This document shows, piece after piece, positions 1,749 to 11,650 of a stretch of 27,419 bases of DNA. How positions within the stretch are numbered: the first letter of the stretch is position 1; the number at the start of each line of letters is the position of its first letter. The position numbers were made by a program, and so were the translations under genes. This stretch comes from a virus (lineage: Duplodnaviria > Caudoviricetes), in the IMG/VR virus record IMGVR_UViG_3300034354_000147, positions 1-27,419 of that record; one strand, given 5' to 3'. The notes under the pieces are model-generated. The model was not told the origin of the DNA and did no database searches. It saw nothing but the letters and a program-made list of their open reading frames with translations.

Positions 1749-4055
1749 CTAGCTGACGTCTCCCCCAGATGGCCCAGAAATGGGTTGTGCACAGGTTGTC
1801 CCCAGGGAAGACGCAAGCGCCGCGCGCGGCTGCCAGCCGTGGACGAGGAAGGATCCGAAAGTCTGGCGCGTCGCGCTCTTGCGCTCCTGCGCGAAGTGTC
1901 GCAGGCCAGAGCGGTCGCCCAGGATGATGAGCGCCTCGGCCGCACGGCTGCAGCCGGTGTAGAGCAGGTTGCGGTCGTGCATGTTCCAGTGGCTGCTGCT
2001 GGCGACCAGCAGAACGAAGGGCCACTCGCTGCCTTGCGCCTTGTGGATCGTCATCGCGTAGGCGACCTCGACGTTGTTGCGCTTGTCGCCAGGGATCTCG
2101 ACCTCACGCCCGTCTTCGGTATAGAGGTGCATGCTGCCCTTCGCGCCGAAGCCGGTCACGATTGCCTGCGTGCCGTTGAACAGGTCCAGCTGGTAGTCAT
2201 TCTTCGTCCAGATAATCCTGTCACCGACCAGCGGCTTCGGCCGCTCGCCATCCTTCACCAGCTCGGGCACCGGGTTGCCCAGCAGCCGCTGCCGCAGCTT
2301 TTGCAGCTCGACGTTCAGCGCATAGGTGCCCAGCTGGCCCTTGCGCTGCGGGGCCAGAACCTGAATGTCCCAGGCAAAGTCCAGCAGGCGGCCGAATGGC
2401 GCCAGCGGCTCGGCAGCAGTAGCGAGGGCCTCGATTAGCTGCGCAGCGACGCTCGCGGCCGCCTCTTCGCTGCCCTTCTCGGTCGGCTCGATTCCCCAGA
2501 CCTCGTTGTTCGTCGCGACCACCACGCCGTCCAAGATCGCCGTGGTGTTGCGGGCCAGGTCGCCAGCCTGGCGCACAATCTCACGCAGGACATGGATTGC
2601 CGGGCTGCTGGCCGTAAGCAGGTCGCGCAGGATCGCGCCGGGACTCACGCTCGGGATCTGGTGGTGGTCGCCCACCATCAGCAGACGACAGCCCTTCGGC
2701 AGCGCCAGCAGCAGCGAGCGCATGAGCTTGATGTCCACCATGGAAACCTCGTCGACGATGACCAGATCAACGTCGAGCGGGTTCTCAGGCCCGCGCAGAA
2801 ACCGGAAGCGACCGGTCATCTCGTCGTAGCTCGGCTCGAGCAGGCGGTGAATCGTCTTGGCCGGGCGCTGCGTCGCGTGCGACAGCTTGCGCGCAGCCTT
2901 GCCGGTGGGGGCGCACAGCTCGACCTGCAGCAGGTTCTCCTCGGAGATCTCACAGACGGCGTTCATGGTGTAGGTCTTGCCCACCCCAGCGCCGCCAGTA
3001 ATGACCGAGAACAGGTGCGTGACGAAGCCCCAGACCGCCTTGGCCTGGTCCTTGTTCAGCGTCTGCAGAACCGCCTGCGCGCGCGGCCCGTCGAACTTCA
3101 GCGCGCCAGTCTCCAGCGCCTCGAGATTGGCCTGCAGCCCCGCCAACAGTCGGCGGAAGACGTCGAACTCGGCCTCCGCCATGCGCGCGTCCGCGACGAC
3201 CTCATCGCCATTGGGCGCGATGTCGACGTGCACTAGGCCGCTGGCGATCAGCTGCTCGAGGCTGTCCTTGATCCGGTCCTCGCCGTCGAGCGTGTCGGGG
3301 CGTAGCTCAAGGATGGCGGCGCCGATCAGGCCCTCGCGCGTCGTCCATGTATCGCCGCTGCCGCCCATCTGGTCCAGGCAGTAGGCGACGCCCGCGGCCA
3401 GGCGGCCGGGGTCGTTGGCAGCAACGCCCATCTGGCGCGCAACTGCGTCGACCGTGCGGAAGCCGAACCGCGGGATCTTGCCGATCAGCATGTAAGGGTC
3501 GCGCTTCACCATGGCCGGCGCGTTTTCCCCAAAGACGTGCATGATGGTCTGGGCCTGCGCGTTGCTCCAGCCCTGGTCGCAGAGCAGCGCCAGCGCGTCG
3601 AAGTAGCTGCGCTTGCTGTTCCAGACCTGCGCAGCGTTCTGCACGATCTCGAGCGGGCAGCCAGCGGCCTCCGCGATCTGGGCGGTGTAGGTTGCCAGCG
3701 CGTTCGCGATGTCCCCGTCCGCGCCCAGGCGCAGCGCAGCCTCAACCACCCGGCGTGCGCGCGCGGGCCCAAGCCCCTTGAAGCGACTGTCGCTGGCGAG
3801 CAGGTGCGCCAACGCCTCGGGGCTGTCGTCCATCTTGACGCGCCCCGTCTCGGCGTTGAACTGCCGACCAAAGCGCTCGTGCACGCCCCAGGCGCCCGTG
3901 ATCTCGAGCTTGTCGCCGACCTGGGCGACGCACTTCCCGCTGAACCGGACCTCGGCTGCGCCGTCCTCGGGCGCCAGGACCCCGGCCATGAAGCAGGTGT
4001 CAGAATTGGAAAAAAAGACGCGGCGCACGGTGCCGCGGATCGTCTCAGTCTGCAT
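1749..4055 (-). CDS. recD2: RecD2/TraA-family SF1B helicase
   Basis: N-terminal OB-like region and HhH motifs (FKGLGPARA, IPRFGFRTVD), Walker A GGAGVGKT, APTGKAA, VDEVSM, VGDHHQIPSV, AYAMTIHKAQGSEW, LLYTGCSRA. Confidence 0.92.
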   Translation of the reverse strand: MQTETIRGTVRRVFFSNSDTCFMAGVLAPEDGAAEVRFSGKCVAQVGDKLEITGAWGVHERFGRQFNAETGRVKMDDSPEALAHLLASDSRFKGLGPARARRVVEAALRLGADGDIANALATYTAQIAEAAGCPLEIVQNAAQVWNSKRSYFDALALLCDQGWSNAQAQTIMHVFGENAPAMVKRDPYMLIGKIPRFGFRTVDAVARQMGVAANDPGRLAAGVAYCLDQMGGSGDTWTTREGLIGAAILELRPDTLDGEDRIKDSLEQLIASGLVHVDIAPNGDEVVADARMAEAEFDVFRRLLAGLQANLEALETGALKFDGPRAQAVLQTLNKDQAKAVWGFVTHLFSVITGGAGVGKTYTMNAVCEISEENLLQVELCAPTGKAARKLSHATQRPAKTIHRLLEPSYDEMTGRFRFLRGPENPLDVDLVIVDEVSMVDIKLMRSLLLALPKGCRLLMVGDHHQIPSVSPGAILRDLLTASSPAIHVLREIVRQAGDLARNTTAILDGVVVATNNEVWGIEPTEKGSEEAAASVAAQLIEALATAAEPLAPFGRLLDFAWDIQVLAPQRKGQLGTYALNVELQKLRQRLLGNPVPELVKDGERPKPLVGDRIIWTKNDYQLDLFNGTQAIVTGFGAKGSMHLYTEDGREVEIPGDKRNNVEVAYAMTIHKAQGSEWPFVLLVASSSHWNMHDRNLLYTGCSRAAEALIILGDRSGLRHFAQERKSATRQTFGSFLVHGWQPRAALASSLGTTCAQPISGPSGGDVS

Positions 4056-10557: not shown

Positions 10558-11010
10558 CTAGTTCCAGCGCTTCCGCTTCGACTGCTGGCCAAGGCGCAGC
10601 TTCATCTTGTCCAGCATGGCGACCGTCTCGCCCGTCTGCCGGGCCGCCCAGGCGTCGCTCTCTGCGCTCGTCGCGTCCCACTCCCCATCGACGACGCGCT
10701 GCGCCAGGTCGTTCCTGCCGCGATCTCGCAGCGCGCACACTAGCTCGACCTGCGGCAGCTCCAGCCCGCCCTCGTCGTAGTCGTCGAACCGGCCGAGTCG
10801 CGCCATGCTGGCCAGCACCGGCAGGCCCTCGCGCTCGAGCACGCGCCCCAGGCGCTCCTTCGTCGGAATCGCGGCCAGCCATGCCGCGCGCTCTTCGGCC
10901 GTCATGAGGCTCAGCTTGGCGTGCTCCAGAGCGGTGATGGGCAGCCAGTGCCTGCCGTCGTCGCCGTGCGGCAGCTGCTCGGTCAGTTCGTGCGGGTGCT
11001 CGGTGTTCAT
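10558..11010 (-). CDS. Hypothetical phage protein (150 aa)
   Basis: GC3-rich ORF, contains ARLGRFDDY...LAQRVVDGEWDAT. Confidence 0.7.
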   Translation of the reverse strand: MNTEHPHELTEQLPHGDDGRHWLPITALEHAKLSLMTAEERAAWLAAIPTKERLGRVLEREGLPVLASMARLGRFDDYDEGGLELPQVELVCALRDRGRNDLAQRVVDGEWDATSAESDAWAARQTGETVAMLDKMKLRLGQQSKRKRWN

Positions 11011-11028
11011 GGGGAGGGCGGTGTCCAG

Positions 11029-11307
11029 CTAGGGGTTGACATACTCGCGCGCAGCGTCACCGTCGGGCCGACGACGACCTGTCATTGGGTGACGGAACCA
11101 TCCGAACGGTTCAGGGTTTTTCGCGGGATCCCAGCTCAGCGCAGCCGCGACCGCAGCTGCTGGCGTCTCGAATCACCAGAGGTCGTCAAACGAGCTGCTG
11201 TTCAACGCCCCCACGCCCAGGCGCATCTTTCCATAGCCGATCGGCACCAGCCAGCAACCGCGCCCGTCCGGCAGAATGCGGATCGGTTGCTCAAACACGT
11301 CAAACAT
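11029..11307 (-). CDS. Candidate selenoprotein (92 aa, in-frame TGA at codon 45)
   Basis: GAGGAGG RBS 6 nt before ATG 11307, overlapping the upstream stop. Translation: MFDVFEQPIRILPDGRGCWLVPIGYGKMRLGVGALNSSSFDDLW-[TGA 11173-11175]-FETPAAAVAAALSWDPAKNPEPFGWFRHPMTGRRRPDGDAAREYVNP-TAG. It fills an otherwise empty gap, and a SECIS-like hairpin follows the TGA. Confidence 0.7.
11137..11172 (-). promoter_or_regulatory. Bacterial SECIS-like stem-loop
   Basis: After UGA come 12 nt, then an 8-bp stem GCAGCUGC/GCGGCUGC (11160-11153 with 11148-11141) closing a GGUC loop (11152-11149). The loop starts 20 nt after the UGA. Confidence 0.65.
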
Positions 11308-11650
11308 GCGTGTCCTCCTCGCGCGCTCGTGCAGCTGCACGCACGGCTTGGTTCAACAGCGTCGGCCAGTCGTAGAGGCTGATGTCGTCGATGAAGGTCG
11401 CCAGGCGCAACGAGCCACGTTGCGTCAGCCCGTACTTCCCGAGGTCCCACTCGCTGGGCCACTCCGTCATGATCTTCCACGCGAGCGCCGGAGGCGCTCC
11501 GAGCGCCACCAGCATCAAGTAGGCGTCCGTGCCACGACCAGTCTCGATGCGCTGCGAAAGCAGCGAGCTGAAAGCTGTGAAGCCAGGATTGCAGCGCACG
11601 CGCGCGCGCAGGCCCGGGTTCTTCATCACCGACCAGTTGACGTTGCGCAT
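11300..11650 (-). CDS. Hypothetical protein (116 aa)
   Basis: GGGAG RBS. Its stop overlaps the start of the selenoprotein candidate, suggesting translational coupling. Confidence 0.7.
   Translation of the reverse strand: MRNVNWSVMKNPGLRARVRCNPGFTAFSSLLSQRIETGRGTDAYLMLVALGAPPALAWKIMTEWPSEWDLGKYGLTQRGSLRLATFIDDISLYDWPTLLNQAVRAAARAREEDTHV

Follow-up and report, generated by a model that had tools for sequence, protein, structure and literature searches.

The viral record IMGVR_UViG_3300034354_000147 is a sequence of 27,419 base pairs (bp) and 66% G+C, with an estimated completeness of about 45%, and was analysed at its full length (hereafter the window). On its minus strand, between positions 11307 and 11029, lies a small gene in which 44 sense codons are followed by a TGA triplet (11173–11175), by 47 further sense codons and by a TAG stop (11031–11029). 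Read through the TGA, the gene comprises 92 codons (M1...W44, U45, F46...P92), and its translation has homologues conserved along the full length; the codons preceding the TGA encode ...SSFDDLW. The start codon (ATG, 11307–11305) stands 6 nucleotides (nt) downstream of a Shine-Dalgarno-like GAGGAGG (11314–11320), and a hairpin resembling a selenocysteine insertion sequence (SECIS) occupies positions 11141–11160. Here, we argue that the gene belongs to a family of small proteins encoded by phages and plasmids, that its in-frame UGA at codon 45 is very probably read as selenocysteine (Sec), and that by the criteria of the field for prokaryotic selenoproteins it counts as a selenoprotein gene; the family is large, undescribed and mostly phage-borne. 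The TGA is assigned as Sec codon from the sequence, the aligned column of the homologues and the contigs of other sequencing runs, and the hairpin as SECIS-like from its fold, its association with TGA forms, its covariation and its agreement with the bacterial SECIS (bSECIS) model. A sequence-only reading of the window had already proposed a selenoprotein, and the alternation of Sec and Cys codons, the covarying hairpin tied to the TGA and the conservation past the TGA all argue for that proposal. The layout that it described (the ATG at 11307 with its ribosome-binding site, the coupling to the upstream gene, the TGA, the TAG and the 18-nt gap to the next gene) was correct in all coordinates and letters on re-reading, as was every position and letter of the hairpin.

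The hairpin starts 12 nt 3' of the TGA, where GCAGCUGC (11160–11153) pairs with GCGGCUGC (11148–11141) and closes a GGUC loop (11152–11149). In the review PMC13188914, the bSECIS model has an apical loop of 3–9 nt, an upper stem of 4–16 bp, a G within the first two loop positions, a distance of 16–37 nt from the UGA and a minimum free energy of −7.5 kcal/mol or lower. The window hairpin agrees with all of these structural and energetic terms: its 4-nt loop opens with GG and begins 20 nt after the UGA, its stem has 8 bp, and the 20-nt hairpin folded alone has a predicted energy of −13.8 kcal/mol.

The Escherichia coli fdhF gene offers the closest comparison. Both genes have, within the coding region and 3' of an in-frame UGA, a hairpin with a GGUC apical loop; the fdhF loop starts 18 nt after the UGA, the spacing in the window being 2 nt longer, and its GU is shared with the phage family, of which it is the most conserved loop feature. 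In contrast to fdhF, the window stem appears in the folds as a perfect 8-bp helix without a bulged U, the encoded protein has no relation to that of fdhF, phages rather than a cellular gene carry the element, and the binding of SelB is here predicted from sequence. A 71-nt fold around the window hairpin reached z = −1.5 against shuffled sequences. In the same kind of test the proven fdhF element scored only z = −0.67, so that shuffling cannot tell real elements from chance. As a single G+C-rich hairpin is not beyond chance on its own, the decision rests on the relatives of the gene.

Relatives, the codon at the TGA column and the conserved hairpin

A scan of viral contigs yielded 65 related loci, whose products share 36–56% identity with the protein of the window. 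Conservation extends to both flanks of the TGA column, and the loci share the position of their end. The codon at that column is TGA in 33 of them, TGC in 21, TGT in six, CAT in two, and TAG, GAC and TAT in one each. From metagenome contigs, the best 80 of 174 relatives were kept, and these carry TGA (71), TAG (3) or a Cys codon (6); the query was built from Sec-type forms, and the proportion of TGA is therefore biased upward. Homologues of the read-through protein comprise eight proteins in a large protein collection, annotated hypothetical proteins of Caulobacter jumbo phages and two alphaproteobacterial plasmid proteins, and they read W-C-Y where the window reads W-TGA-F. The homologues share the C-terminal motif G-W-x-R-H-P-x-T-G-R-R-R-P-x-G-D, whose invariant T-G-R-R-R...D segment lies 3' of the TGA. 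The sequence-only reading had put forward a family pattern D-D-x-W-C-Y...G-W-x-R-H-P-x-T-G-R-R-R; it is real, and occurs in the Caulobacter phage proteins, in the plasmid proteins and in 27 of the 65 viral loci. Both the Cys that this reading anticipated at the TGA column and the conservation on the two flanks of the TGA were found across these homologues. The family is almost confined to viral contigs; plasmids harbour some Cys forms. Two of the latter, from the plasmids pSR-4 of Skermanella rosea (L106) and p1 of Sphingosinicella sp. (L107), come from cultured Alphaproteobacteria and are convenient proteins for bench work.

It could be argued that the gene is a broken Cys form, in which TGC or TGT, one base away from TGA, was changed by nonsense mutation or misassembly, and that the hairpin simply results from GC-rich Ala codons, its single-sequence fold being unremarkable (z = −1.5). 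The occurrence of TGA at the same column in so many viral and metagenome loci, many of them far diverged, excludes a one-off nonsense mutation or assembly error; the TGA is not specific to one strain, a doubt that the sequence-only reading had itself raised. Pairwise comparison within a clade of seven TGA loci (21 pairs) gave a nonsynonymous rate (dN) of 0.064 and a synonymous rate (dS) of 0.392, a dN/dS of 0.16, for the 46 codons that follow the TGA; for the 22 codons before the TGA the ratio is 0.25. These values indicate that the frame after the TGA, which stays open to a stop at a conserved place, is under purifying selection. Neither the sporadic stop nor the relaxed downstream constraint of a pseudogene or nonsense allele was found. 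Near-identical DNA is present in 24 sediment or soil runs of 24 studies. Contigs from three other runs (three studies) cover the TGA and agree with it; their sole variant (11074 A>G on the plus strand) lies after the TGA and is synonymous, changing Arg78 from CGT to CGC. One RNA run (X20) placed nothing on the stretch and gives no evidence either way.

The hairpin separates the TGA and TAG forms from the other members of the family. Counting the U of the UGA as position 1, we defined an in-register hairpin as at least 5 bp between positions 16–23 and 28–35 with a GGUC loop at 24–27, and compared 35 TGA sequences (the 33 viral loci, the window and L069) with forms that have Cys or another residue at the column. 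The in-register stem with its GGUC loop is present in 28 of the 35 TGA sequences, in none of the 27 Cys forms and in none of four other forms. A GU at positions 25–26 is found in 32 of 35, one of 27 and none of four, respectively. Metagenomes added 59 distinct TGA sequences; the GU at 25–26 is present in 56 of them, a stem of at least 5 bp in the same register in 41, and the complete GGUC hairpin in register in 33. The absence of the hairpin from all 27 Cys forms, which yet encode similar Ala-rich helices, is difficult to reconcile with a mere by-product of Ala codons.

The stem also covaries among the TGA forms, a test that the sequence-only reading had proposed. The alignment used consists of 35 ungapped sequences in 33 distinct rows, or 25 rows differing at at least 8 of 48 nt when collapsed, so the related loci are not copies of one sequence. 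Across the 35 sequences, 78.4% of the stem cells are paired, against 64.0% after shuffling, and the covariation score of 0.394 (0.162 in shuffled alignments) was reached by none of 500 shuffles, with controls in which the partner strand was slid giving 0.07–0.20. This signal has to be read with caution: the stem is composed of Ala codons, which pair together readily, and sliding the partner by −3 still leaves 69% of the cells paired, a point that favours the broken gene and speaks against a selected hairpin. The telling pairs are therefore the synonymous ones at third codon positions, and only covariation and the contrast with the Cys forms separate selection on the RNA from this effect of the Ala codons. 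Pair 21:30 occurs as GC, AU, CG, UA, UG and GU, and pair 18:33 as GC, CG and AU. Each is formed in 18 of the 25 divergent rows, against shuffled means of 10.1 and 9.6 (p ~0.0003). Together with the selection past the TGA and the TGA retained in three other assemblies, this third-position covariation means that a broken gene is already contradicted by the comparison of sequences, and we regard it as very improbable.

The predicted element has left an imprint on the protein. Residue 53, encoded by the GUC of the loop, is Val in 30 of 33 Sec forms and in four of 34 other forms, and residues 51, 54 and 55 are more uniformly Ala in Sec forms than in the others. The putative SECIS appears to constrain the protein sequence, in the window at 11149–11157 (codons 52–54) and at the same columns in the relatives. 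On a FastTree phylogeny of 67 rows, from which the trait column had been removed, the 33 Sec forms require six changes compared with 22.6 for shuffled labels (0/500 shuffles as low), and the result holds when the SECIS-encoded residues are left out. The Sec forms occupy one weakly supported part of this tree, and nested among them are a Cys form (P0007), an Asp form (P0005), a His form (L045) and a Trp form (P0009). With few columns and poor resolution, the tree settles a single origin of the Sec forms neither way.

Decoding of the UGA and the machinery of the host

Stop-codon reassignment exists in phages, and one could imagine a code, in this phage or in its host, that treats TGA as sense throughout, as Trp or Gly. 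This is already contradicted by the TGA stops within the window. TGA terminates at least eight open reading frames (ORFs) with a high G+C content at third codon positions (low coordinates 6508, 11300, 11776, 15864, 17205, 17616, 23340 and 26049) and is thus a normal stop there. Five of these stops (6508, 15864, 17205, 23340 and 26049) end genes with family matches. The sequence-only reading had likewise treated TGA as an ordinary stop elsewhere, which holds at four of the five places that it named (6508, 15864, 23340 and 26049). The window accordingly does not show the genome-wide reassignment of TGA known as codes 4 and 25. Moreover, the in-frame TGA occurs in a single gene and at a single column, where the aligned residue is Cys rather than Trp or Gly. 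The window contains no tRNA gene, and no suppressor tRNA was found in it. Five loci scanned with ARAGORN in the two large phage contigs that gave sub-threshold tRNA-Sec matches proved to be ordinary tRNAs, including those for Leu, Ser and Tyr, and no UCA or CUA anticodon was seen among the tRNA genes scanned in the 191-kb and 184-kb TGA-form contigs. A sense TGA throughout is for these reasons hardly conceivable. As in the genome-wide TAG or TGA recoding of phages, an in-frame stop inside a phage gene is apparently meant to be read; unlike it, the recoding proposed here is site-specific, with a local RNA structure as its signal, and TGA is still a normal stop.

Selenocysteine at codon 45 would be inserted with the help of the host. 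In the mechanism that we propose, the hairpin 12 nt past the UGA would act as a bacterial-type SECIS and bring host SelB, loaded with Sec-tRNA(Sec), to a ribosome that has paused at the UGA; SelB would bind the hairpin, selenium would be inserted, and a 92-residue selenoprotein would be made in place of a 44-residue fragment. The phage would rely wholly on the host selA, selB, selC and selD genes, and the output of full-length protein would then track the selenium status of the host. No tRNA-Sec scored above the cut-off in five large phage contigs with TGA forms, and the best matches below the threshold fall in tRNA clusters, so that these phages would depend on the host for this tRNA. The contigs of two TGA forms (L023 and L052; 191 kb and 184 kb) contain large tRNA clusters (L080–L083); in one, 23 tRNA genes lie within a stretch of 3 kb.

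TGA forms with the hairpin are present in two genome assemblies, on a 6.4-kb contig of a Thermomicrobiales metagenome-assembled genome (MAG; G001) and on a 58.6-kb contig of a second assembly (G332). The 58.6-kb contig is phage-like, with terminase, portal, head, tape-measure and tail genes, and its TGA gene stands between genes for RecT and a methyltransferase. In both assemblies, SelB, tRNA-Sec, SelA and SelD all score over curated cut-offs. The selD genes of G332 (C2:2869056-2869982, L104) and G001 (C80:13256-14182, L105) have an in-frame TGA of their own, in the context G-x-G-U-x-x-K, and hairpins about 32 nt downstream of it whose loops contain GU; the loop region in G001 is GGUC. The family is present in only two of 401 sampled genomes of that phylum; one search of the genome contigs covered the pattern TGRRRPDGD only, and prophage copies spelled otherwise were missed by it.

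Could the UGA be read through without selenocysteine? UGA is the leakiest stop codon, and the hairpin might aid its decoding by a near-cognate Trp, Cys or Arg tRNA, or the codon might be a regulated stop that sets the ratio of a 44-residue to a full-length product. SelB might also deliver Cys on a tRNA-Sec mimic: a Cys tRNA that mimics tRNA-Sec occurs in some deltaproteobacteria, according to PMC5389517. The Sec at residue 45 is itself a prediction, and a few relatives tolerate Asp, His, Trp or Tyr at the column. These readings are less convincing in view of the alternation of the codon specifically with Cys codons, one base from TGA, of a hairpin in agreement with the SelB-type SECIS model, including the loop sequence of fdhF and the GU at a fixed distance, and of the full Sec set in the genomes that hold TGA forms. 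On balance, readthrough without Sec seems unlikely to us.

Several observations nevertheless weigh against selenocysteine, beyond its derivation from compared sequences. An in-register hairpin is absent from seven of the 35 viral TGA forms and an in-register stem from 18 of the 59 metagenome TGA forms, and the hairpins of the TGA forms L007, L023 and L030 are weak. Inspection of the exceptions revealed in most cases a shifted register or a loop of 3 or 5 nt; among the viral ones, L015, L024, L025 and L031 are of this kind and keep the GU, while L067 has the in-register stem with a UGUA loop. A scan of positions 10900–11400 with Rfam at E-values up to 10 gave no SECIS family and chance-level matches only; the Rfam SECIS models are built on particular selenoprotein families, so that a miss says little. 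The few relatives with Asp, Trp, Tyr or His at column 45 (P0005, P0009, L027, L041 and L044/L045), some of them nested among the Sec forms, imply that the residue is not indispensable in every member, and each of Cys, Sec, Asp and His could bind a metal or serve as a nucleophile. As regards the host, SelB scores over the cut-off in 294 of the 401 sampled genomes of the phylum (a tally that includes six unpublished genomes, G233, G044, G151, G179, G350 and G278), so that finding it in two of two would often be expected by chance, and binned contigs can be misplaced. The machinery in G001 and G332 is thus weakly consistent with Sec insertion.

The host of the window phage itself was not identified from the protein relatives of its tail protein and its helicase, which is another point on the negative side. 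Proteins of Pseudomonas and Xanthomonas siphoviruses match the tail protein at about 30% identity. The helicase (1749–4055) has relatives of 50–68% identity on metagenome contigs of about 60 kb from many sources, the one named relative being a partial protein from a Planctomycetota MAG. Uncultivated phages of about 58–68 kb form the clade to which the window belongs, and it is on contigs of such phages that these helicase relatives lie.

Four mutually divergent members of the family, one from a viral contig (L010:3109-3111) and three from metagenomes (L146, L151 and L155), have TAG at the Sec column, and all four keep the same GGUC hairpin in register as well as the conserved downstream frame. 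It is tempting to suggest that Sec may be read at UAG in these members, by a tRNA-Sec with an altered anticodon; the alternative is a recent decay of TGA to TAG. Mukai and colleagues reportedly described in 2016 a UAG-read Sec in some bacteria, by means of a tRNA-Sec with a changed anticodon. The TAG forms may thus offer a natural case of Sec decoding at UAG.

The family among known selenoproteins, its protein and its surroundings

Apart from cells, Sec decoding is known, to our knowledge, from two animal poxviruses. In the portions of the published literature on selenoproteins and viral recoding at our disposal, we found no bacteriophage selenoprotein: the words phage, prophage, virus and viral do not occur in the available part of the review PMC13188914, and the only viral selenoproteins named in the corresponding part of the recoding review PMC8310308 are two poxvirus glutathione peroxidases, of molluscum contagiosum and fowlpox viruses. 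The phage family would resemble these in consisting of virus-borne selenoprotein genes reliant on the Sec machinery of the host, and the fowlpox gene also has its SECIS within the coding region. The poxvirus genes differ from the phage family as captured cellular genes of animal viruses with a eukaryotic SECIS, whereas the phage family has a predicted SelB element of bacterial type in bacteriophages, and the phage protein is without a known cellular counterpart. The approach of Zhang and Gladyshev, as presented in PMC13188914, recognises bacterial selenoprotein families by Sec/Cys pairs and bSECIS elements, and the phage family shows the same computational features, namely a UGA aligned to Cys, conservation of both flanks and a hairpin fitting the consensus model. 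Unlike the known bacterial families, it is represented by a model in neither Pfam nor PHROG, lacks a matching fold and is found almost only on viral contigs.

The family is apparently the first Sec-encoding one reported in bacteriophages. We further consider it likely, though with less confidence than the reading of codon 45 as Sec, that it is the first bacteriophage selenoprotein family in the following full sense: a small protein with a new fold that is widespread among phages of soil and sediment, of which about half of the relatives on viral contigs would carry Sec and a SelB-type SECIS and borrow the host machinery, whose four UAG members would indicate that Sec is also inserted at UAG in some hosts, and in which the SECIS would fix the sequence Ala-Ala-Val-Ala-Ala. 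More than 100 independent members with TGA and SECIS would show that phages use a specialised recoding system of their hosts. If this is true, the expression of a phage gene, and perhaps host range, would be tied to the Sec competence of the host and to the supply of selenium. Such genes also represent a blind spot of annotation, as gene callers split or drop them. With a protein of 92 residues, an element of 20 nt and natural Sec, Cys, Asp and His variants, the family is a compact system in which to study why Sec is chosen, and its many natural SECIS variants could be used for engineering.

No family was recovered when the read-through protein was scanned against Pfam and PHROGs. An AlphaFold2 model built from the 67-row alignment is confident, with a predicted local distance difference score (pLDDT) of 92.6 and a predicted template-modelling score (pTM) of 0.83; it contains strands at residues 17–24, 27–33 and 42–46, a helix at 49–58 and a well-ordered C-terminal segment. 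In this model, residue 45 ends the third β-strand, directly before the SECIS-encoded helix and between the aromatic residues W44 and Y/F46. Foldseek gave a best E-value of 0.56 against the PDB and of 0.1 against BFVD, the latter for an uncharacterised phage protein, and VIA-align against 48,161 chains gave a best Z of 4.4, with none at 5 or above; such failed structure matches do not prove a new fold. A Protein Atlas search with a natural Cys homologue led to nameless, mostly viral clusters, the nearest named cluster being PsiB at 0.75, which is at most a lead.

The neighbourhood of the gene is not conserved in the family. Searched by tblastn, the flanks of the 65 viral loci matched none of 14 window neighbours, and no Pfam family recurred among 103 flanking ORFs except DUF6166 in one clade. 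The gene recurs in early, recombination or DNA-damage contexts, such as that of RecT in G332 and of SSB, LexA-like and HNH genes at some viral loci. Of the two plasmid Cys forms, one lies beside a helix-turn-helix regulator and restriction-modification genes and the other, that of the Sphingosinicella plasmid, beside genes for an SOS-response-associated peptidase (SRAP) and DinB. As a weakly supported guess, U45 or C45 would be a reactive nucleophile, a redox centre or a ligand-binding residue in the modelled protein. Guessing further, its target early in infection may be a host protein or a ligand that bears phosphate, on which it would act jointly with the invariant basic segment G-W-x-R-H-P-x-T-G-R-R-R-P-x-G-D.

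Within the window, siphovirus-type tail genes are accompanied by a DNA-metabolism block encoding RadC, LPD29, DUF6011, a PD-(D/E)XK exonuclease, Sak4/AAA_24, ERCC4 and a RecD2-like helicase, and the predicted selenoprotein gene is placed amid small nameless genes of this block. Both of its neighbours are on the same strand and without family. The upstream ORF (11300–11650, 116 residues) ends with a TGA stop (11302–11300) that overlaps the start of the selenoprotein gene, ATG and TGA together reading ATGTTTGA, and the downstream ORF (10558–11010, 150 residues) starts with an ATG at 11010, 18 nt past the TAG.

Two proteins, P0008 and P0012, match only the C-terminal half of the family, with 59–67% identity over 37–39% of the query; the N-terminal half of each is a low-complexity sequence with no relation to the family. 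Frameshifted copies, mis-called ORFs or a different fusion could account for these two proteins.

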